A DNA stretch of 32,000 nt from Acaryochloris marina S15 (GTDB taxonomy: Bacteria > Cyanobacteriota > Cyanobacteriia > Thermosynechococcales > Thermosynechococcaceae), in the NCBI RefSeq assembly GCF_018336915.1, contig NZ_CP064923.1:2850001-2882000 (forward strand), written 5' to 3'. Positions 14,791 through 30,095 of the stretch are shown one piece after another. A program made the translations under genes and the position numbers. How positions within the stretch are numbered: position 1 is the first letter of the stretch; every line of letters starts with the position of its first letter. The notes below the pieces were generated by a model, which saw only the letters and a list, made by a program, of their open reading frames with translations, did not search any database and was not told the origin of the DNA.

Positions 14791-14926
14791 AGGGCATCTC
14801 TCAAAAGTCAAATCAGGGAACTTGGAGGGGAGTCTAGGCGGCAAGTGCGGCCTGATGCTGTCCACCTTTCTCTTTGCAAGCAAAACCTTTAATCACAGTT
14901 ATTTCTCCGTTTAAAATAGCGGCGAT

Positions 14927-14964
14927 GGGATCTATCTGGGATCTATCTGGGATCTATCTGGGAT
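14927..14964. repeat. 11-bp perfect tandem repeat, about 3.5 copies (GGGATCTATCT)
   Basis: Unit copies at 14927-14937, 14938-14948 and 14949-14959, plus a partial GGGAT at 14960-14964. It lies between the debranching-enzyme stop (15072) and the GH63-like start (14790). Confidence 0.9.
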
Positions 14965-15071
14965 TCAGAGCATTTCGTTGTTTTTGTTCGTCCCTAGATT
15001 CAAAAGCAAAGTTTCTGAGATGATGTTCTCAAGTTCAGAGCGAGACCCTGCCGAACAGAGAGATGCACCCC

Positions 15072-17096
15072 TCATGGATATCTCTCATTTGGATTTTTGA
15101 ACTGTTCGACTGCCACCCAGGCCCGTAAGATTTCCGCTACCGACCAAGCCTGAGCAAAACAGCCCCTTGGCGTAAACGGCGCATCACCATCCAAAATTTC
15201 GCTAACATTCCCCAGTCCATGAGCCAATAAATGGTCCGCCATCGGTTCTAGCAGGGAGCGAGCCTGATCTGGATTTCGGTACACCTGCAGATGAGCTTGC
15301 ACATATGGACCGAGTAGCCAAGCCCAGGTAGTGCCCTGGTGGTAAACCCCATCCCGTTGCAGTGGATTACCACCGTAATGCCCTTGATAGCTAGGATGTT
15401 CTGGAGAGAGCGATCGCAATCCATAGGGCGTCACCAGGGATTGTCCACAGACCTCCACAATTGCTCGCTGTTGTGCCAAAGATAGTAGGGCTGGAGAGCC
15501 AGTTTGCCCCGAAGCCATGGGTAAAGAGACGGCGAAAATCTGATTGGGACGTAATGCAGGATCATCCCCATTCGGTCCATCCAGTACGTCGTAGCAGCAC
15601 CCTAAATTTTTGGCCCAAAACCGCTGAAATCCAGCTTTAGCATGGTCAGCCATATCCTGAAAAGCTTGATGAGGTTCTCCCAATCGCTGGGCAAAAGATG
15701 TCATCAATCTGAGCGCGCTGTACCAAAGGGCATTAATTTCAATTGGCTTACCTACCCGTGGGGTGACCACCCAATCCCCCACCTTGGCATCCATCCAGGT
15801 GAGCTGTGTGCTCGCTTCTCCAGCGTAGATTAAGCCATCCTGATCGAGATGAATCCCATAGCGCGTTCCTGTTTGGTGCCAAGCAATGATGTCCTTTAGC
15901 TTCGGGAAAATTTCTTGTAAAAAGTCATTATCTTGGGTGGCAGCATGGTAACAGCGGATGGACTCGAAGTACCAAAGAATGGCATCAACGGTGTTGTAGT
16001 CAGGCTGCTCCCCCACTTCAGGGAAAATATTGGGCAACATGCCCTGATCCAAGTACCGAACAAAGGTACGGATAATGGTGCGGGCAATCTCCGTTCGCCC
16101 TGTGGTCACAGTGATTCCAGGCAAACTAATCATCGTGTCTCTGCCCCAATCACCAAACCAAGGATAGCCAGCGATGATTGTTTTTCCTTCTGGCTCTTCG
16201 GTTAGGGGCCGATCAACCACAAACTGATCGGCAGCCAACACCAACTGTTGAATCCAAGGGGGAGTGGTCTGGGTTGGAGAGACGGACTGCCAGTTTTCTA
16301 GAAGCTGTTGCTCATGAGCACGGCGTTCTATGAGAGCGGTCTTGCCATTCAGATTGGGATGATGTTCAGTACTAGCTACGACCGTCAAACTCTCTCCAGG
16401 CTTCAAGGTGACTTCAAGGGTGGCAGCGTGAAGGTTATCATCACGATTTCCTAGTCCTCGATATCCCTCAATATCTAGATTGAAGTTCCTGTACCAAATA
16501 TGTTCAGGATTGATGTCTCCTTGATCCGCTAACAAGGAGAAAGAGGTTGCCCCATCGAAGGGAGAGATACATACTCCCTGAGGAATAGGGGTTACCTGCA
16601 TTTGCCAATTTTGCCCTCGCGTCTCACTATGGTGGTCGCGATAGTTGACCAACGCTTTAATAGACAAGGTCAAGGCTGAACTCGCCTGTTTGAGGGTATA
16701 GCTAACATAGGTGGTGTTGGCCCCTGGCTGCATCCATACTCGCTTTTCGATTTGTGCTTCTCCACAGGTATAGTTCCACAACGGGATACTCCCTTCTATC
16801 TGAAACCGTTGAAGATTTTGATATCCCTGGGGGGCAACGGTGCCATCTGCCCAACGGTTGACTGCCAGTTCGTAGGTTTTTCCCTGGTACTGGACGGTTT
16901 CGTCAAGCTTGGCCAGTAGGAGCGTACGCTGCAATGGTGGCTTGAGAGCCGCGATTAGAAGACCGTGATAGCGGCGAGTGAGGAGTCCTGCAACGGTTCC
17001 TGCACCATAGCCACCGATACCGTTGGTAATCAGCCACTCTTTTTTCTCGGCCGACGGTAGATCTCCACAAACTGCTCGGTCAAACAGAACAACCAT
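15072..17096 (-). CDS. Glycogen debranching enzyme (amylo-alpha-1,6-glucosidase family)
   Basis: Conserved blocks GYPWFGDWGRDTMISLPG, LTWMDAKVGDWVVTPRVGKPIEINALWY and GNPLQRDGVYHQGTTWAWLLGPY are typical of the GDE_C (alpha/alpha)6 domain. I prefer the ATG at 17096 (MVVLFDR). The ORF-track start at 17147 would overlap the upstream gdh stop. Confidence 0.85.
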   Translation of the reverse strand: MVVLFDRAVCGDLPSAEKKEWLITNGIGGYGAGTVAGLLTRRYHGLLIAALKPPLQRTLLLAKLDETVQYQGKTYELAVNRWADGTVAPQGYQNLQRFQIEGSIPLWNYTCGEAQIEKRVWMQPGANTTYVSYTLKQASSALTLSIKALVNYRDHHSETRGQNWQMQVTPIPQGVCISPFDGATSFSLLADQGDINPEHIWYRNFNLDIEGYRGLGNRDDNLHAATLEVTLKPGESLTVVASTEHHPNLNGKTALIERRAHEQQLLENWQSVSPTQTTPPWIQQLVLAADQFVVDRPLTEEPEGKTIIAGYPWFGDWGRDTMISLPGITVTTGRTEIARTIIRTFVRYLDQGMLPNIFPEVGEQPDYNTVDAILWYFESIRCYHAATQDNDFLQEIFPKLKDIIAWHQTGTRYGIHLDQDGLIYAGEASTQLTWMDAKVGDWVVTPRVGKPIEINALWYSALRLMTSFAQRLGEPHQAFQDMADHAKAGFQRFWAKNLGCCYDVLDGPNGDDPALRPNQIFAVSLPMASGQTGSPALLSLAQQRAIVEVCGQSLVTPYGLRSLSPEHPSYQGHYGGNPLQRDGVYHQGTTWAWLLGPYVQAHLQVYRNPDQARSLLEPMADHLLAHGLGNVSEILDGDAPFTPRGCFAQAWSVAEILRAWVAVEQFKNPNERYP

Positions 17097-17130
17097 AAAT
17101 AGATTCCCACTATTGATTAAAATGGAGTGT

Positions 17131-17955
17131 CTAGCCGCCCGTTGCAAATCCGGGGTAAAGGGTCATGCCGCCATCCACGAATAGCGTCACCCCATGGACA
17201 TACTCTGACTCATCAGATGCCAGCCATACCGCAGCTTTACCAATGTCACTCGATTCACCCACCCGGTTATAGGGGATCAGACTGAGCAAACTTTCTTCTG
17301 CTGCTGGTGTATCCCAGGCGTCTTTATTAATAGGCGTTTTAATCGCTCCAGGGCCGATACTATTGACCCGAATTTTATAGGGTGCTAGCTCTTGAGCCAT
17401 GCTCTTCATCAGCAGCATTACCCCCCCTTTGGAAGCTGCATAGTTACAGTGTCCTGCCCAAGGAATCACCTCATGGACTGAACTCATACAAATGATTTTT
17501 CCAGCCGAACAAGAGCGTCCTGGGACAACCCCCCGCTTTTTGAATTCTTTGGCCGCTTCCCGTGCACAGAGAAATTGTCCCGTTAAATTGACGTCAATGA
17601 CCTTGTTCCAGGCCTCCAGTGTCATCTCGGTAAAGGGCTGATCTTTTTGTAGTCCGGCGTTGTTAACGAGGATATCGACTGTCCCAAAGGCTTCGTAGGT
17701 TTTAGCAAAGAGATTGAAGACTTGGTCTTCTTGGCTAACATCGGCTTGGATTGCGATCGCATCTCCGCCTTGCGCTTTAATCTCAGCAACGACTGCATCA
17801 GCCCCTTTCGGGCTACTTGCATAGTTGACAATAACTTTTGCCCCTGCTTGAGCTAGGCAGAGTGCAACCCCTGACCCTATGCCAGAACTGGCCCCTGTTA
17901 CCAAGGCCACTTGATCTAGTAAACGTTTCACATCAAAGCCCTCTGCATAAATCAA
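17131..17955 (-). CDS. gdh: Glucose 1-dehydrogenase (SDR family)
   Basis: TGASSGIG cofactor motif, NNAG, and catalytic Y-x-x-x-K in NYAASKGG. The blocks MSSVHEVIPW, IGPGAIKTPIN and the C-terminal FVDGGMTLYPGFATGG closely parallel my recollection of Bacillus megaterium glucose 1-dehydrogenase. The start codon at 17955 is TTG. Confidence 0.75.
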   Translation of the reverse strand: MIYAEGFDVKRLLDQVALVTGASSGIGSGVALCLAQAGAKVIVNYASSPKGADAVVAEIKAQGGDAIAIQADVSQEDQVFNLFAKTYEAFGTVDILVNNAGLQKDQPFTEMTLEAWNKVIDVNLTGQFLCAREAAKEFKKRGVVPGRSCSAGKIICMSSVHEVIPWAGHCNYAASKGGVMLLMKSMAQELAPYKIRVNSIGPGAIKTPINKDAWDTPAAEESLLSLIPYNRVGESSDIGKAAVWLASDESEYVHGVTLFVDGGMTLYPGFATGG

Positions 17956-18472
17956 AGACTTCCTTCACATCAAGGAACAGGCATCAAAGATCCTCTGCTG
18001 ACCTTAAGAACGACGTGGAAGGGAATAACACTGGGTTCAAGTTAAATCGGTAACATTAAAATCTACTGAAAATTTCGCTAGAATTTCTGGAGTTATTAGC
18101 AATCTGGCGTTTGCACCACTACTTTGCCTCTCCGGCAACGGTTGAGCACTTTCACAAACAGCCCTAGTAGTGGGTATAGATCTGACCCAGGCTGAACGGT
18201 GCTGACGACAGTCGTAAGAATTGTAGGGCCATTTTTAATCGAGGCAGGGTGCTGAATATCAATGAGAATCCTCGTGGTAGAAAGACTCCAAAGCGATGGC
18301 CAGAGTGTTTAACCTGTCCATATTCCAGGAAAGATTTTGTACCCAGTCAAAGTAGTAAAGCAGTTCTATTGACAAAGGATTAGGGACCCTCATCCTGATA
18401 GGTACGACTTTTGGCCAATAGTCTCTCTTGTTCCTGGCCTTTATAGTGAGCTCTACTAGATGGGTTAGGGGT

Positions 18473-18877
18473 ATGGTGGACAGTCAAACTGCTCATTTGG
18501 GTACGGGTTGGGCATTCCCCATTGAGGTGAATACCCAGGGAAACTTACGGTTTAGTGCCCATGCTGTTCGCAATATTGAAGAATCTATTGCAATTATTCT
18601 AGGGACCAAACTGGGGGAGCGGGTCTATCGGCCTGAGTTTGGTTCCCGTCTCTCCGAATTGACCTTTGCCCCTATGAATACCCAGACGTTGTTGTTGGTT
18701 CGATTGTATGTGACGGAAGCATTGCAACGGTGGGAACCCCGCATTGTCCTGGATGGCGTCTATACAGAGCCAGACCCGATTGAAGGGCGGGTTGAAATTA
18801 CCCTTGAATACCATCCCAAACAGACCCACGATTACCGGAGTTTAGTCTATCCGTTTTATCTAACCCCCATTACCTAG
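18473..18877 (+). CDS. GPW/gp25-family baseplate wedge protein (TssE/Afp9 equivalent)
   Basis: GTGWAFP near the N-terminus, then IEESIAIILGTKLGERVYRPEFGSRLSELTFAPMN and ALQRWEPRI, which are the gp25 lysozyme-like fold signature blocks. I prefer the ATG at 18473; the ORF track begins at a TTG at 18428. Confidence 0.9.
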   Translation: MVDSQTAHLGTGWAFPIEVNTQGNLRFSAHAVRNIEESIAIILGTKLGERVYRPEFGSRLSELTFAPMNTQTLLLVRLYVTEALQRWEPRIVLDGVYTEPDPIEGRVEITLEYHPKQTHDYRSLVYPFYLTPIT

Positions 18878-18884
18878 GCAAGAC

Positions 18885-21062
18885 ATGGAGTTTGATTTCT
18901 TACCCAAGCTACCCAAGTCGGATCTCGATGACCGCAGTTTCGATGATCTCGTGCAAGAATGCCTACTCCGCATCCCTCGTTATTGTCCTGAATGGACCCA
19001 CCATAACCCCAGCGATCCAGGCATCACCTTAGTCGAGCTATTTAGCTGGCTAACGGACCAAATGTTGCTGCGATTTAATCAGGTGCCCCGTCGCAACTAT
19101 GTCACCTTTTTAGAGTTAATGGGGGTAAGGCTGCAGCCCCCCTCCCCAGCAAAGACTCCGGTGACCTTCTACCTCAGTGCAGGTTTATCGGAGAACTACA
19201 CGATTCCGATGGATACGGAAGTGGCAACCCTACGCACGGAAACAGAAGAAGCGATTGTCTTTAGTACCGATCGCCCTGTCACCATTGGACAACCGCGACT
19301 CCGCCATTTACTCACGGCTGATATTGCCGAAATGGAACCGCAGTTCGTGCGAGATCGCTTTGCCGAATCCTGGAGTTTGAACCCTGACGGAGAATGGCAA
19401 GGGTCTGCCTTAAGCTGCTTCAATCCTCAGCCTCAAACGGGCAATTGTTTTTATCTCGTTTTTGAGCCAGAGCAGCTAGCCGGGAATGTCATCTCCGTGA
19501 CCTTTAAGGGGGAAGCGGCTACTCCCACAGGGATTAATCCTGAATGTCCACCCCGCCAATGGCAAGCTTGGAATGGTGTCTATTGGCAGCCAATTTTATT
19601 AAACGAAGCCGATGACCATACGGATGGCTTTAGCTTTGCCCGATTAACCCGCCAAAATGGTAATCCCCTCCAAGGGGCAGATGTAGTCTTGCACTTGCCC
19701 CAACATTGGCCTGTTACCAATTTTGCTAGCTATCAAGGTCGCTGGATTCGGTGTGTCTATGAGACGGAGCAAACCACCCAATGGGGCTATCGCTGTTCGC
19801 CAGAAATTGTAGGGGTGTCGGTACAAGCGATAGGAGCGACAGTTGATACGACTCAATCCTTACAAATCCACAATGAAATTTTAGGAGCCAGTGACGGCAC
19901 TCCCGGCCAAACCTTTCAACTTCAGTCCGCACCGATTCTGCCTCGCCGAGATCCTGAATACCTGTTGGTGACCGCCGTTGGTGGTATTCCTCAGCGATGG
20001 ATGGAGATCACGGATTTTGCGGACTCTGGACCAGAAGACCTGCATTACACCATTGATGCTCTCACTGGGACGTTACAGTTTGGACCTTTGATTCGAGAAC
20101 CGGCTCAAATTAAGGCACAAACGCAACAGCGGATGGCCCAATCCAATGCCAATCTTGTAGCCTTAGCCCCGGAGCAGCAGACTCTGAAGCGTCAATATGG
20201 CAAGGTGCCTCCTAAGGGAGCTGAACTGCGGATGGCCACCTATCGAACGGGCGGGGGGCTGAAAGGCAATGTGCAAAGCGGGATGATTCGGATCCTGAAA
20301 ACTGCGGTGCCCTATGTCGCCAATGTGATCAATCATCAGCCTGCCCAGAATGGAACGGATGCTGAATCCTTAGATGCTGCCGTGATTCGCGTACCGCAAA
20401 TGTTGCGAACCCGAGATCGCGCCGTCACCCAGGAAGATTTTGAGACCTTAGCCTTAACGGCAGGTCAAGGGGCAGTGGCACGAGTCCTCTGCTTGCCTGC
20501 GGATCAAACGGGCACCCCAGGACAGGTCCGCCTCCTGTTGGTCCCCCAGGTGAGGACGGATGCGATTGAGCGGGGCGAGGGCCTTCATCCTGATGTTCTC
20601 AGTCTGACTCCCCAGCTACAAACCCAGGTCAGCGACTACTTGGATGATCGTCGTCTCTTGGGTATGGCGATTCGCTATGACCAACCTCACTATGTGGGGG
20701 TCACGGTTCAAGCAGAGGTTGCCCTAGAACCGGACTACAACAATGCAGAAGCCCAAACCGAGATGCGGCATCAGCTTCAAGTGGCCCTATATCGATTTCT
20801 AAACCCGATTACTGGCGGTCCTGATGGCCGAGGTTGGCCCTTTGGCCGTCCTGTATATCCCTCTGATATTGTCACGCTGTTTCAGCCCATGCCGGGGGTG
20901 CGGCATTTGGGAACCGTTCAATTGTTTGAACTCCGTCGTCAGGAATCTCGTTGGCAGCGGATCTTGCCTAAGGAGCCGGTGATCGATCCGGGGCCTTTAG
21001 GGGTGCTCTGTTCCTGGCAGAATGCTCAACTTCGCTCTAGTCACGCTATCAGTTTGCTGTAA
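18885..21062 (+). CDS. Baseplate J-like / gp6-like putative baseplate assembly protein (TssF/Afp11 equivalent)
   Basis: The N-terminal block DDRSFDDLVQECLLRIPRYCPEWTHHNPSDPGITLVELFSWLTDQMLLRFNQVPRRNYVTFLELMGVRLQPPSPAKTPVTF matches the characteristic opening of the putative baseplate assembly protein family (TIGR02243-type, as I recall). It starts 7 nt after the gp25-like stop. Confidence 0.9.
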   Translation: MEFDFLPKLPKSDLDDRSFDDLVQECLLRIPRYCPEWTHHNPSDPGITLVELFSWLTDQMLLRFNQVPRRNYVTFLELMGVRLQPPSPAKTPVTFYLSAGLSENYTIPMDTEVATLRTETEEAIVFSTDRPVTIGQPRLRHLLTADIAEMEPQFVRDRFAESWSLNPDGEWQGSALSCFNPQPQTGNCFYLVFEPEQLAGNVISVTFKGEAATPTGINPECPPRQWQAWNGVYWQPILLNEADDHTDGFSFARLTRQNGNPLQGADVVLHLPQHWPVTNFASYQGRWIRCVYETEQTTQWGYRCSPEIVGVSVQAIGATVDTTQSLQIHNEILGASDGTPGQTFQLQSAPILPRRDPEYLLVTAVGGIPQRWMEITDFADSGPEDLHYTIDALTGTLQFGPLIREPAQIKAQTQQRMAQSNANLVALAPEQQTLKRQYGKVPPKGAELRMATYRTGGGLKGNVQSGMIRILKTAVPYVANVINHQPAQNGTDAESLDAAVIRVPQMLRTRDRAVTQEDFETLALTAGQGAVARVLCLPADQTGTPGQVRLLLVPQVRTDAIERGEGLHPDVLSLTPQLQTQVSDYLDDRRLLGMAIRYDQPHYVGVTVQAEVALEPDYNNAEAQTEMRHQLQVALYRFLNPITGGPDGRGWPFGRPVYPSDIVTLFQPMPGVRHLGTVQLFELRRQESRWQRILPKEPVIDPGPLGVLCSWQNAQLRSSHAISLL

Positions 21063-21092
21063 CAGGAGATTGCCCATTTCTCGGTAACCGCC

Positions 21093-22139
21093 ATGACGAC
21101 CTCCCCTGATCTACTGCCCTTAAGACTGCAATTGGCCCCCATGTCCGTGGCGGCGACGATGCCCCAACCCATTGTGAGAAAGGCGTCACAGGCAGAGATG
21201 GCTCCTTTTGCTTGGCAGCAGACCCATCTCTGCCAACAAGTGCTGCATCCGGGGGAACCGAGCGAGATTGTTGTGCAGTTGGAGAATAGGTGCGATCGCA
21301 CCCTCCGTATCCGCTTAGAAACAGAAGGGACCTTTCCGTTGGACTGGTGTCGGATTGGTCAAGAAGGGCAAACGTTGCCCCCAGGTAGCAAAATGGAAGC
21401 GGTTTTGTACTTCCAGCTCCCGGAAGATTTTTTTGAAGCCGAATCCAGTCCAGCCTTTATTCAAACTCAGGGACTAGATTTTCGAGGACGACTCTGTGTA
21501 TATTTCGGCACTGTCGATACCGAAACTAGCGAAGCCACCGGCGGCTTGACCTTAGAGACAGCGGAGTTTTTACTGTTTGTTCGCCCCCGCAGTCTCTATC
21601 CCACTTTTTTGCCCGACATCTATAAAGAAGTGGATTTTATTGGCCGCTTCCTCCATATTTTTGAGCAAGCCTTTGAACCTGCAGTCCAGACCCTCGATAC
21701 CCTTTGGGCCTATCTCGATCCCCTGACGGCACCTGAAACCATGCTTCCTTTTCTAGCCCATTGGGTGGGCTGGCAGCTGGCCTCTGAATTGCCATTATCC
21801 CGGCAGCGGTCCCTTATTCGTCAGGCGATTCAGCTCTATCAGTGGCGAGGCACGCGGAAAGGGCTGCGGCTCTATCTGCATTTATATACCGGGCTGCCCT
21901 TGGAAGAGTTTGTCCCCGAAGACCAGAAGCAAATCTCGATTCAAGATTCCTTTAATCGTGGATTAGTCCTAGGAGAAGCCTGTCTGGGCCAAGAATCTAC
22001 CGTCGGGGGAGGTAAGCCTTTCCATTTCTCCGTTTGTTTACGCTCCCAACAACCCCTTTCTGAATCCCTTATCCATAAAATCATCCAGCAGGAGAAGCCT
22101 GCTTTTTGCACCTATGACTTGTGTCTTGAGTCATCCTGA
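21093..22139 (+). CDS. Phage tail protein I / gp7-like wedge protein with an extra N-terminal beta-sandwich-like module
   Basis: The C-terminal ~180 aa (FLPDIYKEVDFIGRFLHIFEQAFEP...LDPLTAPETMLPFLAHWVGWQL...RQAIQLYQWRGTRKGLRLYL) matches the P2 gpI-like phage tail protein domain (TIGR02242-type, as I recall). The N-terminal ~160 aa contains the module LHPGEPSEIVVQLENRCDRTLRIRLETEG..W..LPPGSKMEAVLYFQLP. Confidence 0.8.
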   Translation: MTTSPDLLPLRLQLAPMSVAATMPQPIVRKASQAEMAPFAWQQTHLCQQVLHPGEPSEIVVQLENRCDRTLRIRLETEGTFPLDWCRIGQEGQTLPPGSKMEAVLYFQLPEDFFEAESSPAFIQTQGLDFRGRLCVYFGTVDTETSEATGGLTLETAEFLLFVRPRSLYPTFLPDIYKEVDFIGRFLHIFEQAFEPAVQTLDTLWAYLDPLTAPETMLPFLAHWVGWQLASELPLSRQRSLIRQAIQLYQWRGTRKGLRLYLHLYTGLPLEEFVPEDQKQISIQDSFNRGLVLGEACLGQESTVGGGKPFHFSVCLRSQQPLSESLIHKIIQQEKPAFCTYDLCLESS

Positions 22140-22148
22140 TTTTATTGC

Positions 22149-22214
22149 ACACCTATTTATTCTTATGTCTTGACATTACACCTATTTATTTCTGCCTATC
22201 TACACCTATTTATT
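22149..22214 (+). promoter_or_regulatory. Three perfect 13-bp direct repeats (ACACCTATTTATT) in the 97-nt spacer inside the gene array
   Basis: Copies at 22149-22161, 22178-22190 and 22202-22214, with start-to-start spacing of 29 and 24 nt. A TTGACA hexamer at 22170-22175 lies between copies 1 and 2. The next ORF starts at 22237. Confidence 0.6.
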
Positions 22215-22236
22215 CCCATCGCACCCTAGATCCTCC

Positions 22237-23613
22237 ATGACCTACTCGCCACCTACTCCCCCTGTTCAGCCCCTGCAACGTCTGCGGGTGACTGATGGGC
22301 TGTTGATTAATGCTGAGCGTTGGCGGCTGGCCTATGACTACCACCGTCAACGCCAGAGTCTGTATTACCAATCCCTCCATCAGCCAGGGATTGTCTGTGG
22401 GTTAGGCATTCATCCGATTGCCCCACCGGAGAAAATTGCCCAAGCCTATCAGGACCAGCGGTGGCTGCAGATTCAGCCGGGCATGGCCATCGATGATCAA
22501 GGCAATTGCATCGTGGTTCCTGAGCCCATCGACTTCAGGCTTGCCTCTCGGGTCGAACAGCCAACATCTGTCTATTTGGTGCTCCAATACGTCGATCCAG
22601 AACAGCTCCAGCAGGCTGAGGATAACCCTGTTCTCACAGAAGTATTTCGGATTGATGAAAAGACCCATCCCCCCGGACCTGGAGAAGTCGAGATTTGTCG
22701 GCTCATTCTTGATGCTGATGCCCAGCTGCAGTTACCAACAGATCCCTTCTTCCCCCAAATCAACCAGGTGGATTTGCGGTATCGGCTGCAGCCGAAATCT
22801 CGCCCTCAAGCTGTGCTCCAAGTCGCTCAAGTAAGCCTTAGCTCCCCATCTCCTCAACTCCAGCAGTCGGCGGTCAATTTTCAAGCTTTCCTCAGATCTA
22901 TTGAGGTTCTGTATCCCAACCTACTAGCAGTGTCTGCCCCTGATCCAATTGAACTGGTGGATCAAAACCCAGCCGTCGTTCTCGGGGACTACGATGTCCT
23001 GTACCTGCAGACGCAAACGGTCCAAGCTTTGTCCGATGTGCAGATGCGATCGCTTCAGTCTTTCCTCATGCAAGGGGGATATTTATGGGTCGAGATTTCA
23101 GTTCGGGGAACCCAGTTGGCAGAGCTATTGACGGTCAGAGCTCAATTACAGGCAGCACTGGCCCAAATGGAGGGTTCACAGACTGTGGGGGCATCTGCAG
23201 CGACTCAAAATGTACAGCCCTTGCGTCAAGAAATTACCCAGGAATTGACCGCTGTGCAAACGGCCCTCAATACCAAGCTTGATGAAACAGGACGGCCCTT
23301 TCGGGCTTTAGCGGAGCAAATGGGCCAGCCCTTGCAAGTCCTGCCAGCAGATCATCCCATTGGCTGTCAGCCCTTTCAGTTTGGGGCCTTACCGACTGTG
23401 AATCAACGGCCTATTGAACTGTTCCTCAGCGAACATCTCCTGATGGTAGTCGGTGATTTGTCCGTGGTTTGGGGAGGGGGGAGTAAAGAGGGCTTTGCCC
23501 GAGACCAGATTCGCACCGCTCAGGAGTTTGGCATCAATCTCCTTCACTATGTTTGGCAGCACCAGAATTATCGTCAGCTTCTAGCCACATCCACTACAGC
23601 GTCTACCCCTTAG
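22237..23613 (+). CDS. Hypothetical protein occupying the tail-fibre position; C-terminal half is DUF4159-like (tentative)
   Basis: 458-aa ORF. The C-terminal half has YDVLYLQTQTVQALSDVQMRSLQSFLMQGGYLWVE, then HPIGCQPFQFGALP, LLMVVGDLSVVWGGG and QIRTAQEFGINLLHYV. This pattern resembles the DUF4159 (GATase1-like fold) layout as I recall it. It is interrupted by a Q/A-rich, probably helical insert. The N-terminal half (RLRVTDGLLINAERWRLAYDYH...) is unassigned. Confidence 0.65.
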   Translation: MTYSPPTPPVQPLQRLRVTDGLLINAERWRLAYDYHRQRQSLYYQSLHQPGIVCGLGIHPIAPPEKIAQAYQDQRWLQIQPGMAIDDQGNCIVVPEPIDFRLASRVEQPTSVYLVLQYVDPEQLQQAEDNPVLTEVFRIDEKTHPPGPGEVEICRLILDADAQLQLPTDPFFPQINQVDLRYRLQPKSRPQAVLQVAQVSLSSPSPQLQQSAVNFQAFLRSIEVLYPNLLAVSAPDPIELVDQNPAVVLGDYDVLYLQTQTVQALSDVQMRSLQSFLMQGGYLWVEISVRGTQLAELLTVRAQLQAALAQMEGSQTVGASAATQNVQPLRQEITQELTAVQTALNTKLDETGRPFRALAEQMGQPLQVLPADHPIGCQPFQFGALPTVNQRPIELFLSEHLLMVVGDLSVVWGGGSKEGFARDQIRTAQEFGINLLHYVWQHQNYRQLLATSTTASTP

Positions 23614-23617
23614 TGCC

Positions 23618-25357
23618 ATGCCTTATTTTGCCAGTGCGTTTCAACATCAGTGGCGGCGGTTAAAACTAACCACCAAGTTTGGCTTTGTTCTATCGACGGT
23701 CTTTGTGGCCACGACGGGGATTGCCGGGGTAATCATTCATCAATCCGTGCATCAACAGGCAGATCATGAGCTGGAGTCACGGGGCCAACTGCTAATGGCA
23801 TTAGTGGATCAGCTAGAACAGGAAGATTCTGCTTCAGAAGCCTACCCCGTGGTCTCTTCATTGTGTGAGACTCAACCCTCCTTGTGCTCCAAAGTCTTGG
23901 TGCCCGAGTCTGGCTCGGCCATCCAGGATACCGATCAGCTAGCCGAGACTCTCAAAACGCAATTTCAGAATCAACCCGATCAAGAAACCCTATCGGGCTA
24001 TATCACCCATGCCGATCAGGAAAACTATTATCTAGCCCGACGTCAGGAGCAGGAGGGTTCCCTGCAGGTTCAGGCTATTTTTATTCCGGCCGCTCCAGCG
24101 AAGAAATTAGCTAAAGCCAACTTTTGGATGGAGATGGGGACCTTTGTGGTGTTTTTGGGGCTGACCCTGTTGTTGGTGAATGACCTAGTCCGGCGGACAG
24201 TCTTAAAACCCCTTCAACCGATGACCCAATTGGCCCATCGCCTCAGGCACAATCCAACTCGTCTCCTGGATGAATCCAGTTCAGAGATTCAGCATCTGCA
24301 CCATCATGCCCAGCAAGGCGATGAAATCGGTCAGTTGGCTGGCGCTTTACACCATCTTTTCACCACCTTCCACCACCATCCGTCTAGCCCTGCACCCATT
24401 CCGGCTGCCAACCCCGCCACTGTTCCCAATTCGGTCCAGGCGTTATTGAGTCAAACTCAGATGACGTATACCCACGAACTATTAGAGAAGGCCCGTCAAG
24501 TCCGGCAGCAACTCGGACAAACCCAAGACTTTGATTTACTCCGGTGTCTGCAAAGCGTAGACTTTCTCCAAGACTTTACTGAGCCCCAACTTCAGGATTT
24601 AATCGCCTGTGGCTATCAACGCCAGTACGAGCCGGGAGAAATTATCTTCCGTGAAGGAGAGTGGGGCCAGATATTCTATATCGTTCTGAATGGGGTGATT
24701 CAGTCTCAGGTTGATCACCCTGAACGGCAAGGCAACAAGTTGGTCTCGGGGGATGCCTTTGGTGAAACTGCCTTGTTGTCTGGGGTCACCCGACAGAGCA
24801 CTATCCAAGCTGTGGAACGGACGACGCTATTTCTAATTGAGGACCAGGCTTTTCAACGATTGCTGCGCCAATATCCTCAATGGGGCAACCGCCTTGTTCA
24901 ACGCCAATCGCAGCTAGCTGAAATCCTCAGGCAGGTGGACTATTTTCAGAATTGGTCAGAAATCCAATTCCAGCAGCTCTTGGATCGAGGCTATCGCCAA
25001 AATCTGGCAGCGGAGGCATCCTTTACCCCTGAACTAGCCAAGGTCTATGTCGTTATCTCCGGTGGCATTCACATCCAAGACCAGGACATTACCTTATCCC
25101 CCGGAGACTGTTGGGGGGATCTGAGTTTACTGTTTGAGGATCTCCCTCCGATTCACAGTCAAACCCTTGCTCAAACTAGTCTGTTCCTTTTAGAAGCGTC
25201 GGATTTATTTAGCTTACTCAAACGCTATCCCCATTTAGTCGACGTCATGGCCAATGTTTTATGGCAACGACAGCCCCAAGAGCAGAGATATCGACTGCCC
25301 GCTAATGGCTTGAGTTGGATTCGAGACCGCCTGCAATCCCAGTTACCCCCTATCTAA
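23618..25357 (+). CDS. Membrane sensor-like protein: TM, extracytoplasmic loop, TM, HAMP, then two cyclic-nucleotide-binding domains
   Basis: Hydrophobic helices FGFVLSTVFVATTGIAGVII and MGTFVVFLGLTLLLV. A HAMP-like segment follows (RRTVLKPLQPMTQLAHRL...GDEIGQLAGALHHLF). The first cNMP-binding domain is canonical (FREGEWGQIFYIVLNGVI...GDAFGETALLSGVTRQSTIQA). The second is degenerate (GDCWGDLSLLF). I could not recognise any enzymatic output domain. It starts 4 nt after the previous stop. Confidence 0.8.
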   Translation: MPYFASAFQHQWRRLKLTTKFGFVLSTVFVATTGIAGVIIHQSVHQQADHELESRGQLLMALVDQLEQEDSASEAYPVVSSLCETQPSLCSKVLVPESGSAIQDTDQLAETLKTQFQNQPDQETLSGYITHADQENYYLARRQEQEGSLQVQAIFIPAAPAKKLAKANFWMEMGTFVVFLGLTLLLVNDLVRRTVLKPLQPMTQLAHRLRHNPTRLLDESSSEIQHLHHHAQQGDEIGQLAGALHHLFTTFHHHPSSPAPIPAANPATVPNSVQALLSQTQMTYTHELLEKARQVRQQLGQTQDFDLLRCLQSVDFLQDFTEPQLQDLIACGYQRQYEPGEIIFREGEWGQIFYIVLNGVIQSQVDHPERQGNKLVSGDAFGETALLSGVTRQSTIQAVERTTLFLIEDQAFQRLLRQYPQWGNRLVQRQSQLAEILRQVDYFQNWSEIQFQQLLDRGYRQNLAAEASFTPELAKVYVVISGGIHIQDQDITLSPGDCWGDLSLLFEDLPPIHSQTLAQTSLFLLEASDLFSLLKRYPHLVDVMANVLWQRQPQEQRYRLPANGLSWIRDRLQSQLPPI

Positions 25358-25360
25358 TCT

Positions 25361-27601
25361 ATGGAAAAGCAGATTGCCACTCAAGTCTTACCCAAACAGC
25401 TAGCGTTTACACCTGGTGGTCCTCCTTCTGCCTTTGCCGTAGAGGTGGTTAACCACAGTAATCGCTACGCGAGTTTCCAGCTCGAAGTCTCTGCAGCTGG
25501 CACGAATAGCCTTTCGGAGCGCAAGTGGTACCAAGTTTTCCCCGATATTAGTACTAAAAATCCCCCCGGAGATACGACCCAATTCCAAATTGCGATTACG
25601 GATAGTCCGGTACCGGGGTTCGTGGGGTTAATGAGCTTGGCGGTGCGAGTGTTCTCCATCGAACTAGAGGAAGAAGAGCGGGAGTCTCTCAAGTTAACCC
25701 TGGAGCAAGGAACGGGATCAGTTCCCTTGGGACTTAACTTGCCCGTCGAACATTTTGATGCGGATCCAGGAGAGGAAATTCAAATTCCTGTGTTGGTGAA
25801 TAATCCTAGTCAGCTGAAAACGAAAGCGGTTGTCAGCATTAAGGGGATTGATTCGAGCTGGTTCTCCGCAGGCCATGAGCAAACGATTAACTTGGCCCCT
25901 GGGGCAACGGTGCCCACCACCTTTAGCTGTCAATTGCCTCTTGATCCGGTGCAAGCCCCTAGTCATGGCTATCAGTTTCAGATTGAAGCTAGCCATGCCT
26001 ACGGGCCGCCCACGCATATAGAGGGGAGTTTAAAAATAGATCCTCTGGGGTTTGTCGCCTTTCAGGCCCAACCCGAGGAACTCTGTATTCCCGAACAGTT
26101 TCAGTTGAAATTTTGGCAATCTCATCCAGTGACCTATGAATTGCTGTTTGAAAACAGCAGCAATCTGTATCAGCATGTGCAAATAGAGCTGGTCGATCCG
26201 CCTCCCCACTGTACCTTTGAGGTACTACCAGAAAGTACTAAATTGGGGCTTGGAGATTCTGGCAAACTTTCCCTCGTTGCCCATGCCCATCGCCCCTGGC
26301 TAGGGTTATCCAAGCGGCATTCATTGCAAGTCGATGCGGTCTGGTCAAATGTCGACCGCATTGATAGTCGCGATGAAACTCAAGTTCTGCAGTTAGAGAT
26401 TAAACCCCGTATCCCCTTGTGGTTAGTGATTTTACTGACTCTGCTGGGAGGTACTTGGTTGTGGTTCCTTTCTCCCTTTAATCAATACAATGACCGCTAT
26501 GGTCATCGTGGAGCTGTCACTTCTGTTGCCTTTAATGGCATCGCCGATCAGGCGGTGTCCAGTTCGAATGATACGACGGCCATTCGTTGGAATGTAGAGG
26601 GCCTCAGTACTTGGTGGGCTTTTCCCTATTTGGAAAATATTATTCAGCCGGGCAAACAGCTGACCCAACAGCAAAAAGCCATCCGCGTGATCACCTATCG
26701 CCCTGTCAATAACGATTTGGTGGCTGTGGGCTTGGAGAATGGCCAAATTCAACTGTGGGATTTAAACACCGACCATACGGAACCCCTGCAAACCTTTAGT
26801 TATGAAAAATCCGATCGCGTGTTGGATGTGGAGTTTAGTCAGGACTCTCGCTATCTGTTCAGTAGTCATGGCAGCGGTACAACGGTGGTCTGGTCGACCC
26901 AACGCACGGTCCAGCAGCAAAAGATCTTCAAAGAACAGAAAATGCCCTTTGCGATCTATGACTCGGTCCTGTTGGGCAATACGGATCAGTGGCTTGCGAT
27001 CGCAGGTCAACACAACCAGTTGGTCCTGTGGAATTGGCAATCAAAACAGCCCCCAAAACCGCTCCCTTATCCTCAATCTGGCACCAATCACTATATCCAA
27101 AGCATCGATACGGCCCGGGATACGCCCAACCTTTTGACCACAGCTGATACCCAAGGCAATATCACCCTGTGGAATCTATCCGCCTGTCTAAAAGATGCAA
27201 CCTCTTGCAAAACTCTACAACCTCAAGTCTGGTCCCATGGTCCAGACAATCAGCCGGTACGTTCTGTCTCCTTAAGTGACGATGGTTGCTACCTAGCGAG
27301 CGGCGGGGATGATGGTCGATTGATACTGTGGCCGCTACTCCCCAATGGGCAGCGAGATCCAGAGTTTCCCACCGGTAAACCACTTTATGAACCCCATACT
27401 TTCAGTCCGGAAAATTTATTCCAATCTATTTTTCATCCCAAATCTTCTGATCGCATTAATAGTGTGGATTTGAAGGTAATTGGCGACAAGATTCTCGTGT
27501 TGAGCGGTAGTGACGATACCCAAGTGCGTTTATATCCGACCACGGTCAAAGACGTTCAGGCCAAAATAAAACGACAAACTCCCGCTTGTGGCAAACCCTA
27601 A
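25361..27601 (+). CDS. Bitopic membrane protein: N-terminal beta-sandwich modules, one TM helix, C-terminal WD40 repeats
   Basis: The TM helix IPLWLVILLTLLGGTWLWFLSPF is encoded at 26411-26479. WD-type repeats follow: GHRGAVTSVAF...SSSNDTTAIRWNV, ENGQIQLWDL, TTVVWS, NQLVLWNW, GNITLWNL, GGDDGRLILWPL and GSDDTQVRLYP. There is no N-terminal signal peptide. It starts 3 nt after the previous stop. Confidence 0.8.
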   Translation: MEKQIATQVLPKQLAFTPGGPPSAFAVEVVNHSNRYASFQLEVSAAGTNSLSERKWYQVFPDISTKNPPGDTTQFQIAITDSPVPGFVGLMSLAVRVFSIELEEEERESLKLTLEQGTGSVPLGLNLPVEHFDADPGEEIQIPVLVNNPSQLKTKAVVSIKGIDSSWFSAGHEQTINLAPGATVPTTFSCQLPLDPVQAPSHGYQFQIEASHAYGPPTHIEGSLKIDPLGFVAFQAQPEELCIPEQFQLKFWQSHPVTYELLFENSSNLYQHVQIELVDPPPHCTFEVLPESTKLGLGDSGKLSLVAHAHRPWLGLSKRHSLQVDAVWSNVDRIDSRDETQVLQLEIKPRIPLWLVILLTLLGGTWLWFLSPFNQYNDRYGHRGAVTSVAFNGIADQAVSSSNDTTAIRWNVEGLSTWWAFPYLENIIQPGKQLTQQQKAIRVITYRPVNNDLVAVGLENGQIQLWDLNTDHTEPLQTFSYEKSDRVLDVEFSQDSRYLFSSHGSGTTVVWSTQRTVQQQKIFKEQKMPFAIYDSVLLGNTDQWLAIAGQHNQLVLWNWQSKQPPKPLPYPQSGTNHYIQSIDTARDTPNLLTTADTQGNITLWNLSACLKDATSCKTLQPQVWSHGPDNQPVRSVSLSDDGCYLASGGDDGRLILWPLLPNGQRDPEFPTGKPLYEPHTFSPENLFQSIFHPKSSDRINSVDLKVIGDKILVLSGSDDTQVRLYPTTVKDVQAKIKRQTPACGKP

Positions 27602-27617
27602 CGGATGATTTCAGCTC

Positions 27618-30095
27618 ATGACAGACCTCACTCGTGTTGATCAACTCGGCTTACAGGCCCAGAAAGTGGGTAATCCCTTGGGCATTATCCGCAATCCTTC
27701 GGGGGATGTAGCGGTTCAGGCGGGGGAAATTTTTGAACTTAGCGTCACCGTTACCAATGATGGCATTCACAGTGCCATCATCAACATCGATATTACGGAC
27801 TCTACAGATATCGTGAGCCAATGGTGTACTTCCTCCCGGGAGAGCCTTGCCCTCAATCCGGGGGAAAGCAGTGAGGTCTTCTTCCGCATTCAGGTGCCAA
27901 CCGAAACCCTACCGGGCTTCTATCCCTATACCCTGGTCATTGATGCGCCAAAGCACTATCCCGAAGAAACCCCCATCCGCTATCCCGCTCGGCTACAGGT
28001 GCTGTCCTACGTGCGGGAAACAGCAGAAGTTAGTAATCCGGTCTTAGGGATTGCCCCTGCCACCACCGCTGCGTCACCCATGCCGTTGCAAGCAGGGGAT
28101 GCTTTAGCCTTAACGGTGCTCGTGGATAACCGATGCGATCGCGTCGATCGATTCCGGTTAATCTGTCCCGATTTGCCAGCCGAATGGGTAAAAATTATTT
28201 ATCCCGAAGGGCCCCAGACGGGAGTTGTGATTGCCAGTGAAGCTCTAGAACTCAACCCAGGGGATACGGGCCAGATTCAGGTTCTGATTCAGCCACCCCT
28301 CGATACGGATGCAGGTATTTACACCCCCACCATTCGTCTGTTTTCCATCAATAACCCCGAACTGGTGTTGTTGGAAGCGGTTTATCTGCACATCCTGCCC
28401 ATTTACCAGGTCGATATTGAGCTAATTTCCCTGGTTAGTCGGGTCAAAAATCAGTCGGGATGGTTTGAGCTGCGGCTCCATAATGCCGGAAATACCCCAC
28501 GAACCCTGAATCTACAGGTCCAGAATCTAGATGCAGAAGAACTCTGTGACTATACCCTTAGTCCCACCCAGGTCCATTTATTACCCCATGCCTCGACCAA
28601 GGTCAGCCTAGAAGTTCAGCCCACTCAATGGTGGAAACGTCCTTTTTATGGTCGTCCCCTCAATTTTGCTCTGGAGTTGGAGGATACTCAGCAACTTCCC
28701 CTGGTCAATAATCGCTTTCAAGGGGCATTGATTTGGGAACCCAGACCTTGGTGGCAATTGCTGCTGGTGATTTTGACCCTGTTTGGCACCTTGGTGGGGA
28801 TTGCTTTAATCGTATGGTGGTTACTGACCCGTCCCCCAGCCAGAGCTGAGATTATCAGCTTTGCCCCAGCGACTTACAACCTCAAAGAGGCGGATGGTCG
28901 TCCCATTGAACTGAGCTGGACCATCAAAAATCCTCATAAATTCAAGCAGCTTCAAATTAAAGGGGTTTCTCCTGACGGTGTTGTGATGAGTGGTCCCTTT
29001 GTCTACGATTTCCAAGGGGGAATGCCCCCAGAACTCAGCCATTTTTGTACCCTCGCCGAGGTGCTGCGGTGTCAGCAGGTGCCTACGGATGCACGCAAGC
29101 CAGGCACCTATCGATTTGATTTATCTCTCTCACCTCAACCTGAAGGCGTTCCTCAGCCCATTGCTGCTAAAACAGAGGCAATCGTAGTCCAACCCTTCCC
29201 ACCCCCTCAAATTCAACAATTTGAACCCACACAGACAACCTATACAGAACCCATTGGTCAGATCACCCCGAAGCAGTCATCAGGGATTTATCTGAATTGG
29301 CAAATTACCCAGAGCAAAGGGACTAAGGTGACGCTAATCGGTCGAGGAGCGGATAATGCCCCCGTTACGGCCCCCAAAATATTTGACTTCAATCAAGGTA
29401 TTCCTAAGTCTCTGCAAAAAAATTGTCGTTTGAACTCCCAAACCCTGGTTTGTCTGAATGTACCAACCGGGGTTCAGGACTCTGGGACCTATATCTTCGA
29501 ACTCCAGGTCACCCCAAAACCAACCCAGACCAACCCTCCTGCTGACCCATCTCCCATTATTCAGAAAACCGAGCCAATCCAGATTAAGCCAGGGCCAGTG
29601 CAAATTCAGGAATTCACAATTAATGGCAAGATTGCGAAACCCAAATATGTATTTGTCCTTAAAGATCAAAATCCATTAATGGTAAATGTGTCCTGGAAAG
29701 TTAAAGGCAGCAAAAATACTAAAGTCAATTTACTACCGGCACCAGGGACTGTTCCCCTCCAGGGCAAGGCGAATTTATCCTTTGGACCCACATCTGCCAC
29801 CCAAACTCTCACTCTGCAAGTCACGAATACCAAAGGCGAACAACAAAATCGATCCGTCGTGATTGAAACCGTAGCCCCTCCTGCTCCAGTGGCTCAAGCC
29901 CCCAAGGCCCCTGCAAGTTCTGCAGCCAATAGTTCTAATATTCCGGCGGCAGCTCCCAGCGTAGATCCCAACTCAGCGGCAACGCCTGCTCCACCGTTGC
30001 CGGATCCACCGTTGCCGGATCCACCAGGAGGCATTCAGCCCGTACCGCGCGATCGCAACTCGCCACCCCCAGCAGAATTACCTCCCCAGTTTTAG
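27618..30095 (+). CDS. Bitopic membrane protein: three N-terminal beta-sandwich modules, one TM helix, three Ig-like repeats, Pro/Ala-rich tail
   Basis: The TM helix WWQLLLVILTLFGTLVGIALIVWWLL is encoded at 28749-28826. C-terminal internal repeats begin near 28845, 29205 and 29598. The first two each carry a conserved Cys pair (SHFCTLAEVLRCQQVP / KNCRLNSQTLVCLNVP, followed by GTYRFDL / GTYIFEL). The tail is PAPPLPDPPLPDPPGG. There is no N-terminal signal peptide. Confidence 0.8.
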   Translation: MTDLTRVDQLGLQAQKVGNPLGIIRNPSGDVAVQAGEIFELSVTVTNDGIHSAIINIDITDSTDIVSQWCTSSRESLALNPGESSEVFFRIQVPTETLPGFYPYTLVIDAPKHYPEETPIRYPARLQVLSYVRETAEVSNPVLGIAPATTAASPMPLQAGDALALTVLVDNRCDRVDRFRLICPDLPAEWVKIIYPEGPQTGVVIASEALELNPGDTGQIQVLIQPPLDTDAGIYTPTIRLFSINNPELVLLEAVYLHILPIYQVDIELISLVSRVKNQSGWFELRLHNAGNTPRTLNLQVQNLDAEELCDYTLSPTQVHLLPHASTKVSLEVQPTQWWKRPFYGRPLNFALELEDTQQLPLVNNRFQGALIWEPRPWWQLLLVILTLFGTLVGIALIVWWLLTRPPARAEIISFAPATYNLKEADGRPIELSWTIKNPHKFKQLQIKGVSPDGVVMSGPFVYDFQGGMPPELSHFCTLAEVLRCQQVPTDARKPGTYRFDLSLSPQPEGVPQPIAAKTEAIVVQPFPPPQIQQFEPTQTTYTEPIGQITPKQSSGIYLNWQITQSKGTKVTLIGRGADNAPVTAPKIFDFNQGIPKSLQKNCRLNSQTLVCLNVPTGVQDSGTYIFELQVTPKPTQTNPPADPSPIIQKTEPIQIKPGPVQIQEFTINGKIAKPKYVFVLKDQNPLMVNVSWKVKGSKNTKVNLLPAPGTVPLQGKANLSFGPTSATQTLTLQVTNTKGEQQNRSVVIETVAPPAPVAQAPKAPASSAANSSNIPAAAPSVDPNSAATPAPPLPDPPLPDPPGGIQPVPRDRNSPPPAELPPQF
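29991..30020 (+). repeat. Perfect 15-bp in-frame tandem duplication (CCACCGTTGCCGGAT x2) encoding PPLPD-PPLPD
   Basis: Copies at 29991-30005 and 30006-30020, followed by a partial CCACC at 30021-30025. It lies inside the Pro-rich tail of the 825-aa ORF. Confidence 0.9.

Follow-up and report, generated by a model that had tools for sequence, protein, structure and literature searches.

How contractile injection systems (CIS) that are neither classical type VI secretion systems (T6SS) nor released extracellular CIS (eCIS) attach to membranes and fire through them is an open question. The lineages solved so far, namely the thylakoid-anchored CIS (tCIS) of Anabaena, the Streptomyces CIS with its protein CisA and the CIS of haloarchaea, each differ, and the contact partners are mostly unknown. 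The question is raised again by a locus of the cyanobacterium Acaryochloris marina S15, contained in a stretch of 32,000 nt (contig NZ_CP064923.1, positions 2,850,001 to 2,882,000; hereafter the window). Translation of its open reading frames (ORFs) gave seven tightly spaced ORFs on the + strand (18428-30095), among them a gpI-like baseplate wedge protein and two membrane proteins of 746 aa (p746) and 825 aa (p825). A sequence-only reading of the window had proposed that one beta-sandwich-like module of 60-75 aa recurs about seven times in these three proteins and docks the wedge onto the membrane proteins by homotypic contact. Here, profile comparisons show that the seven segments are homologous immunoglobulin-like (Ig-like) modules in three proteins of a CIS cluster, and we weigh what their sharing suggests about membrane attachment.

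Seven homologous Ig-like modules in three proteins

The ORFs and the motifs within them lie where the sequence-only reading had placed them, and its central claim of one module in seven copies stands: one copy is in gpI (21093-22139), three are in p746 (25361-27601) and three in p825 (27618-30095). On the + strand, as are all features described below, the gpI copy, I_N, covers aa 44-168 (21222-21596), with a beta-sandwich core at aa 47-163. In p746, A1 covers aa 8-118 (25382-25714), A2 aa 119-228 (25715-26044) and the membrane-adjacent A3 aa 229-352 (26045-26416). In p825, B1 covers aa 18-132 (27669-28013), B2 aa 140-262 (28035-28403) and the membrane-adjacent B3 aa 263-375 (28404-28742). All seven are supported by HHalign, together with AlphaFold2 models for I_N and B1-B3, matches of hidden Markov models (HMMs) for A2, A3 and B3, a Pfam match for B1, and, for A1, its collinearity with B1 in a whole-region alignment. 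Two details of the proposal had to be corrected. The true domain is about 110-125 aa long with 7-8 strands, of which the proposed pattern spans only the first five, and the gpI copy, which is indeed present at nt 21240-21422, in fact occupies aa 47-163 (nt ~21231-21581) and runs past 21422. The proposed consensus pattern, taken literally as a transcribed regular expression, matches 0 of 7 proteins, yet the HHalign alignments are in register with its motif, PG...hxhxhxN...W...L.PG...hxhxxP.

Pairwise BLASTP comparisons of single modules were in register yet gave marginal E-values, calculated for a tiny database, and family profiles were therefore used instead. Because a word-indexed homologue search with the p746 N-terminus returned 2 proteins only, orthologues of p746, p825 and gpI were gathered from 80 related genomic loci, the best of 451 stretches found to encode a gpI relative in a pattern scan of one genome per species. 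The family alignments were cut into modules, and the resulting profiles, with 33-81 orthologues per module, were compared by HHalign. This HMM-HMM comparison tied all seven copies together at probabilities of 88-97%. I_N was linked to A2 (95.1%), B1 (94.2%) and B2 (95.7%), A1 to A3 (94.9%) and B2 (91.3%), A2 to B1 (96.1%) and B2 (95.8%), A3 to B3 (97.1%, E 4.9e-11), and B1 to B2 (88.5%), with P-values of about 5e-11 to 3e-6 for these nine pairs. The modules form one connected graph in which some direct pairs are insignificant (3.8% for I_N and B3, 0.8% for A1 and A2). Ten control segments (the gpI C-domain, two WD40 pieces, two pieces each of the neighbouring p458 and gp6 proteins, and three C-terminal repeats of p825) reached at most 18.5% against the seven modules, mostly less than 3%, and forward-versus-reversed profile controls peaked at 16.4%.

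Searches with the module HMMs gave the same picture. At a threshold on the independent E-value (i-E) of < 0.01 to 0.05, they cross-matched only the gpI, p746 and p825 families among the 3222 ORFs of the 80 loci and the 241 six-frame segments of the window: the A2 HMM matched gpI in 27 loci and p825 in 30, the A3 HMM matched p825 in 32, and the B3 HMM matched p746 in 41. Profile alignment of the whole N-terminal regions further showed p746 aa 20-371 and p825 aa 36-403 to be collinear over 326 columns (98.4%, E 7e-15), which indicates that the two membrane proteins are paralogues with a common body of three Ig domains and a transmembrane (TM) helix. The sharing of the module by the three proteins is most simply explained by duplication and shuffling of one domain inside the operon.

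Structure prediction bore out the proposed beta-sandwich. In the AlphaFold2 model of gpI (alignment of 25 sequences), a seven-strand sandwich at aa 47-163, with a predicted local distance difference test score (pLDDT) >90 over most of its length, is followed by a helical and alpha/beta wedge domain at aa 169-348. The model of p825 aa 1-411 (31 sequences, mean pLDDT 90.3) contains three successive beta-sandwiches and then the TM helix, with pLDDT values of 89-96 for the B1 core and >90 for B3. I_N and B1-B3 are thus all predicted confidently as beta-sandwiches, and A1-A3 would share this fold by their homology to B1-B3. Foldseek related the gpI N-domain to ASH/MSP/PapD-like, FixG-related and sialidase Ig domains, and the p825 model to tandem ASH proteins of the ciliary central apparatus, the Cep192 SPD-2 domain and macroglobulin domains; 7sqc, 9ijj, 9fh8 and bacterial alpha-2-macroglobulins appeared in both lists. 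The profiles of I_N and of the p825 N-terminus had no match among the sequences of solved structures. The assignment to NEW3/CARDB-like Ig (E-set) domains, also made from the sequence alone, agreed both with Foldseek and with Pfam, in which NPCBM_assoc/NEW3 (PF10633) matched p825 at 36.5 bits against a gathering threshold of 24.4. This match comprises two stretches, the best of which, aa 34-108, is B1, and weaker matches were to Cep192_D3, FixG_C, Ig_VWA7, CARDB and DUF11. As single sequences, gpI and p746 reach no Pfam Ig threshold, and their membership of the NEW3 type rests on the profile links.

The fold itself is common, which shows in how far the profiles reach. Among 1.84 billion representative proteins, the I_N profile found 88 at E <=1e-3, so that the gpI-attached subfamily is small beside the generic NEW3 domains; 52 of these carry the gpI C-domain and most of the others are gpI fragments. 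About 10 are long multi-repeat proteins, seven of which were scanned with Pfam: six contain Ig families of the NEW3/FixG_C type and one is a TPR/CHAT protein. The HMMs of I_N, A2, B1 and B2 match identical units in six long multi-repeat proteins. In the same search p746 and p825 stayed below library-wide significance, and the link from gpI to them needs profile-profile methods or HMM searches of small databases. Within the 80 loci and the window, cross-family matches of the module HMMs are confined to three families, whereas the I_N profile also reaches generic multi-NEW3/FixG_C proteins at library-wide significance. The objection that the module might be a ubiquitous Ig fold with no enrichment in this neighbourhood is right about the generic fold and clearly wrong about enrichment. 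Judged by these profiles, the module has the widespread NEW3/FixG_C/ASH-like Ig fold, and what sets it apart here is how strongly it is concentrated locally and that a wedge protein carries it. With NEW3, FixG_C, CARDB and ASH-MSP-PapD domains the modules have the fold in common, and B1 belongs to the same Pfam family (PF10633). Generic NEW3-type domains are usually extracytoplasmic or surface repeats, whereas here they are probably cytoplasmic and are found on a wedge protein and on CIS-specific membrane proteins.

Tandem copies of the same module type also make up two adjacent proteins of 825 aa and 1099 aa on a metagenome contig (L081 575-6462), on which no CIS genes were detected; one of the two is among the long multi-repeat proteins reached by the I_N profile. 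The 1099-aa protein matches the B2-B3-TM part of p825 (phmmer E 5.5e-16). It may be that p746 and p825 derive from COG1470-like membrane proteins such as this pair; one p825 homologue is annotated as 'COG1470 family'.

The striking pentapeptide NRCDR, shared by gpI and B2, was rejected as a marker of this homology. It had been cautioned that part of the identity could reflect pressure from the highly iterated palindrome HIP1, and this caveat proved stronger than it was first put. The window contains 14 HIP1 octamers (GCGATCGC), including the sites at 21292-21299 in gpI and 28135-28142 in p825; both sites are real, and the peptide is not conserved in gpI. The codons are AAT AGG TGC GAT CGC in gpI and AAC CGA TGC GAT CGC in p825, so that those for N and R differ, whereas CDR is encoded in both genes by TGCGATCGC, which contains the octamer GCGATCGC. 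At this position gpI homologues have N-L/R/Q-x-x-x and p825 homologues a conserved NRSDR, which is the ancestral form of the p825 family. The Cys in the p825 of this lineage coincides with the HIP1 octamer, and only the Asn is a family feature. The identity of the two peptides is coincidence plus HIP1 and has to be discounted entirely.

The wedge protein and its gene cluster

The identification of the 348-aa gpI-like protein as a wedge component (Tail_P2_I / Cis12-like) is well founded. In addition to Pfam Tail_P2_I it matches TIGR02242 (E 5.5e-38), and its C-domain is related to a small baseplate subunit of the S. coelicolor CIS, 9GTP, which was found both by Foldseek (9gtp_A, E 5.6e-8, together with a phage baseplate) and by the C-domain profile in a sequence search of solved structures. 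The protein begins with a conserved peptide (aa 1-18) and a disordered linker, which are followed by I_N and the wedge domain. I_N is kept in 25/25 aligned gpI homologues, with invariant residues that include P53, E58, F81, P82, W85, E91, G92 and E115. The N-terminal peptide (21093-21146; consensus MTQ.....PL.LQLTPMQ.PE) is conserved across cyanobacteria; aa 10-17 are predicted as a beta-strand in a block of pLDDT ~79, and a variable, disordered linker of ~25 aa separates the peptide from the Ig domain. In the model, the peptide looks like a tethered strand or a short binding motif. The gpI of Acaryochloris marina MBIC11017 shares 94% identity with that of the window.

Two further wedge genes precede gpI. 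The first operon gene in the window (18428-18877) encodes a gp25-like baseplate wedge protein, the Cis9 equivalent (Pfam GPW_gp25, E 2e-19), and keeps the same slot in related loci; the second (18885-21062) encodes a gp6/Baseplate_J-like wedge protein, the Cis11 equivalent (Pfam Baseplate_J, E 1.9e-14; NCBIfam TIGR02243, 659 bits). By these Pfam and NCBIfam assignments the adjacent gp25-like, gp6/Baseplate_J-like and P2 gpI/Cis12-like genes constitute a CIS baseplate module. Directly after gpI, as in nearly all related loci, is p458 (22237-23613, 458 aa). Its N-terminus is a Cis13-like domain for baseplate attachment (NCBIfam CIS13_fam, N-terminus, E 3.4e-9) and its C-terminal domain is DUF4159-like (Pfam DUF4159, E 1.9e-7); it has no Ig module. 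This pairing of domains stands in for a conventional tail fibre. No strongly hydrophobic stretch was seen in p458 by eye, the protein being outside the formal hydropathy scan. The product of the next gene, p579 (23618-25357, 579 aa), resembles a sensor. Its two TM helices correspond to hydrophobic segments at aa 21-40 and 169-190; Pfam further assigns it HAMP and, twice, a cNMP-binding domain (cNMP_binding, E 1.5e-22), and no output domain was recognisable.

The membrane proteins p746 and p825 follow and differ only past the membrane. Hydropathy places a single TM helix of p746 at aa ~351-373 (26411-26479), where it is kept in the family alignment, and a WD40 beta-propeller lies beyond the membrane (26498-27601; Pfam WD40 and several beta-propeller families, E about 1e-20). 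The single TM helix of p825 is at aa 378-403 (28749-28826; AlphaFold2 helix and hydropathy), and its C-terminal region (28830-30095) contains, by HHalign and HMM matches, three other repeats, B4-B6, and a Pro-rich tail. B4 and B5 are linked by HHalign at 100% and B5 and B6 at 90.3%, whereas no comparison with the seven modules exceeded 2.9%, so that they represent a second, sequence-unrelated family. The Pro-rich tail reads PPLPDPPLPDPP... Pfam found no catalytic signalling output domain in either protein.

On which side of the membrane the Ig arrays lie bears directly on their possible role. N-terminal signal peptides are lacking in both p746 and p825. Seventeen of the 33 p825 orthologues, though not the p825 of the window, carry an extension of ~100 aa before B1, which is a MarR-like winged helix in all three that were tested (L042 14879-17764, L024 14627-17356 and P0123; borderline in Pfam, best 26.9 against 27 bits). 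The lack of a signal peptide and the winged-helix extensions argue for cytoplasmic N-termini, and the Ig modules of p746 and p825 most likely lie on the cytoplasmic side, where the baseplate is too. Some of the extended orthologues are annotated as 'transcriptional regulator'. The modules are not equally conserved. Mean pairwise identity is 0.61 for A1, 0.58 for B1, 0.62 for B2 and 0.55 for I_N, with 0.41 for A3 and 0.51 for B3; A1 is the best conserved A module, the membrane-proximal A3 and B3 are the least conserved of the seven, and A1, B1 and B2 are conserved as strongly as some core baseplate segments.

The 80 related loci are all from cyanobacteria, including Gloeobacterales, Pseudanabaena, Nostoc and Coleofasciculus, or from unclassified metagenome-assembled genomes, and the order gp25-gp6-gpI-p458-(sensor)-p746-p825 recurs across them. 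Of the 56 loci that extend far enough downstream, 54 have p746; p825 was present in 31 of 49. In a reverse search of metagenomes with p746 N-terminal motifs, 31 of the 34 informative loci had gpI upstream, and 24 of 31 had p825 downstream, from which the p746 family appears essentially confined to this cluster. The slot between p458 and p746 is occupied either by the HAMP-cNMP protein or, in 18 loci, by a dCache-HAMP protein (e.g. L034 12586-13962), and this variability suggests a lineage-specific input to the system. In many Nostocales loci the slot is empty.

On the 5' side of gp25, related loci contain genes for a VgrG-like spike (34), CIS_tube (32), a gp19-like tube (12) and DUF4280 (10); a sheath gene was not seen in any of the flanks examined. 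With spike and tube genes directly upstream in these loci, the operon is the distal half of a complete CIS cluster. In the window, gp25 is instead preceded by an intergenic region of ~470 nt and then by divergent metabolic genes (a short-chain dehydrogenase/reductase, a glycogen debranching enzyme and a GH63-like protein; 12100-18427), and the cluster therefore appears to be split in the source genome. In four metagenome loci (L123, L128, L130 and L119), p458-p746-p825 occur without upstream gp25, gp6 and gpI, and in L119 the wedge genes are inverted downstream; the cluster can thus break at different points in different lineages. Among divergent CIS clusters, the gpI Ig domain is split by an insertion in L082, and in L083/L084 the DUF4159 gene is inverted, with an IS605-family OrfB transposase gene alongside.

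Possible membrane docking and its alternatives

We consider it somewhat better than an even bet, with a probability of roughly 0.55, that p746 and p825 serve the CIS specifically, as bitopic anchors or transducers in the membrane, and that their cytoplasmic Ig arrays meet the Ig domain of the wedge. In this reading of nt 18428-30095, the distal (baseplate and anchor) half of a CIS cluster, the N-terminal Ig arrays of p746 and p825 would lie in the cytoplasm with the baseplate, and the two proteins would form a dedicated membrane complex. The membrane-distal modules A1, B1 and B2 would contact the wedge periphery, the site of I_N and of the Cis13-like p458, and this contact would tether the baseplate to the membrane, with the membrane-proximal A3 and B3 acting as spacers. 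Signals from outside or from second messengers could be relayed to assembly or firing through the outer WD40, Ig and Pro-rich parts and the neighbouring HAMP/cNMP sensor. A more far-reaching version is only tentative, and we would lean against it as it stands: a pan-cyanobacterial CIS, found also in the thylakoid-less Gloeobacterales, might have a trans-membrane complex of its own that docks it to the cytoplasmic membrane and that evolved independently of the T6SS proteins TssJLM, with the cytoplasmic triple-Ig arrays of the two paralogues co-assembling with a homologous Ig domain on each of the six wedges, and with the outer WD40, Ig and Pro-rich domains and a cNMP/HAMP or dCache sensor gating firing by envelope or second-messenger signals. 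If true, it would represent a new membrane-anchoring and triggering architecture for CIS.

Several observations weigh against anchoring through the shared modules. Homotypic docking of the wedge on the membrane proteins, which had been suggested from the sequence, is drawn from shared ancestry and gene order and is plausible but unproven. Shared domains need not imply contact, since the fold is common and also occurs in unrelated multi-repeat proteins, including those of a locus without CIS genes. Judged by the positive-inside rule, p746 gives no clear orientation and p825 leans mildly towards the one contrary to that proposed. After background divergence was regressed out, residual distances correlated between I_N and B1 (0.47), I_N and B2 (0.41) and the gpI C-domain segment I_C and B2 (0.45), values that are weak, non-independent and confounded by phylogeny. 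p825 is absent beside p746 in about a third of lineages, and in the divergent clusters L082 and L083/L084 gpI keeps its Ig domain with p746 and p825 not adjacent. No sheath, tube or spike genes lie within the window, and expression of a complete machine in the source organism is for that reason putative.

The main rival is common descent without docking. The Ig domain would have been duplicated and shuffled in the operon, and each copy would now act on its own, on the wedge as a rigid spacer or decoration and on the membrane proteins as stalks that bind other partners, such as p458, Cis11, effectors or lipids; the Ig domains of wedge and membrane proteins would not touch. We regard this as possible, if on the doubtful side. 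It fits a generic fold that serves as a spacer in many tandem-repeat proteins, the loci in which gpI with I_N lacks adjacent p746 and p825 (L082, L083), the dispensability of p825 in about a third of lineages, and the known CIS anchors, which contact Cis11 or use Cis13 and share no domain with the wedge. The strong conservation of I_N, with invariant charged residues too, nevertheless exceeds what would be expected of a passive spacer, A1, B1 and B2 are as conserved as some core baseplate segments, and the distances of I_N correlate best, if weakly, with those of B1 and B2. Were there no contact, the finding would shrink to a tidy case of within-operon domain shuffling, the fold itself being ordinary.

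A regulatory role, in which p746 and p825 would form with the HAMP/cNMP protein a transmembrane signalling module that steers CIS expression, assembly or firing and does not hold the baseplate, seems improbable. In such a module WD40 and Ig sensors would face outwards, and the Ig arrays, joined in many species by a winged-helix domain, inwards. The sensor gene (HAMP-cNMP or dCache-HAMP) in the slot between p458 and p746, the N-terminal extension of about half of the p825 orthologues with its MarR-like winged helix and occasional regulator annotation, and the WD40 domains, which are typical interaction or sensor platforms, are in its favour. Yet the p825 of the window has no winged-helix domain, p746 and p825 have no catalytic output domain, and a tight position right behind the genes for wedge and fibre, kept throughout the phylum, is what structural parts typically show; regulatory and anchoring roles can, moreover, coexist. 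That the modules resemble each other by chance, through a loose beta-strand pattern and a HIP1-driven NRCDR and with no homology, can be regarded as already refuted. The failure of the literal pattern, the marginal BLASTP values and the lineage-specific origin of NRCDR would each agree with chance, but the HHalign links are in register and far above the unrelated and reversed controls, the cross-family HMM matches recur in dozens of loci and nowhere else among the 3222 ORFs, the N-terminal regions of p746 and p825 are collinear over 326 columns, and both AlphaFold2 models show one fold. The domain shared by the wedge and the membrane proteins offers a concrete, testable guess at a docking interface, for which I_N, A1 and B1-B2 would be minimal constructs.

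Relation to known contractile injection systems

In the tCIS of Anabaena sp. PCC 7120, the anchor is an extension of a very large Cis12, itself covering aa 610-1,100, plus a TM helix on Cis13, and there is a Cis19 crown (Weiss et al. 2022, PMC8894136). The cluster described here resembles it as a cyanobacterial CIS in which cluster-encoded elements tie the baseplate periphery to a membrane, the anchoring being in our case deduced from the genes. It also resembles it in the gene logic of Cis9, Cis11, Cis12 and Cis13, and in the N-terminus of p458, which is similar to the baseplate-binding N-terminus of Cis13. Membership in the Anabaena type was rejected: gpI scored 71 bits with CIS12_fam against a cut-off of 860, and p458 36 against 370 with CIS13_fam, at its N-terminus only. 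Neither of the Anabaena-type anchor features, a Cis13 TM helix and a long membrane-contacting Cis12 extension, was found, p458 having been inspected by eye and gpI being 348 aa long. The TM segments are here on separate proteins, p746 and p825, which are unmentioned in the tCIS description (PMC8894136). The Cis12 of this cluster is short and has one Ig domain only; its Cis13-like protein, p458, has no strongly hydrophobic segment by eye and terminates in a DUF4159-like domain. The cluster here also occurs in Gloeobacterales, which lack thylakoids.

Judged by its closest matches, the cluster belongs to a different CIS lineage, whose Cis12 core appears closest to the Streptomyces type. Among solved structures, the gpI C-domain is closest to the S. 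coelicolor baseplate subunit of 179-190 aa (9GTP), which is probably Cis12, and both systems encode in the cluster a bitopic membrane protein, CisA there and p746/p825 here. Streptomyces CisA is bitopic with a cytoplasmic N-terminus and is needed for membrane engagement and firing; its cytoplasmic part is largely unstructured with a predicted Cis11 contact, and its outer domain is substrate-binding-protein-like (PMC12237407). In contrast to p746 and p825, CisA has no domain in common with the wedge, and the matched baseplate subunit is, at 179-190 aa, too short for an extra Ig domain.

The likeness to the TssJ-TssL-TssM complex of the T6SS and to Hbor_38620, the anchor of the haloarchaeal T6SS-like CIS, which has six TM helices and a cytoplasmic domain of ~150 residues (PMC11566945), is one of concept only: membrane proteins devoted to the task hold a contractile baseplate at the cytoplasmic membrane. 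Neither p746 nor p825 was found to be related to these proteins in sequence or fold, and tandem Ig arrays or a domain shared with the wedge have been reported for neither TssJLM nor Hbor_38620. A domain shared by wedge and anchor is likewise unmentioned in the Anabaena, Streptomyces and haloarchaeal descriptions (PMC8894136, PMC12237407, PMC11566945), and no description of p746 or p825 was found in the literature searched. The cluster therefore represents a widespread, unstudied cyanobacterial CIS lineage with a previously undescribed Ig-based membrane module.

Elsewhere in the window, and unrelated to the Ig modules, the Pfam family Glutaminase scores a total of 757 bits over two stretches of a 654-aa ORF with a TTG start (3084-5048). 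The ORF could encode a glutaminase that is tandem or fused, and its start call may be overlong.

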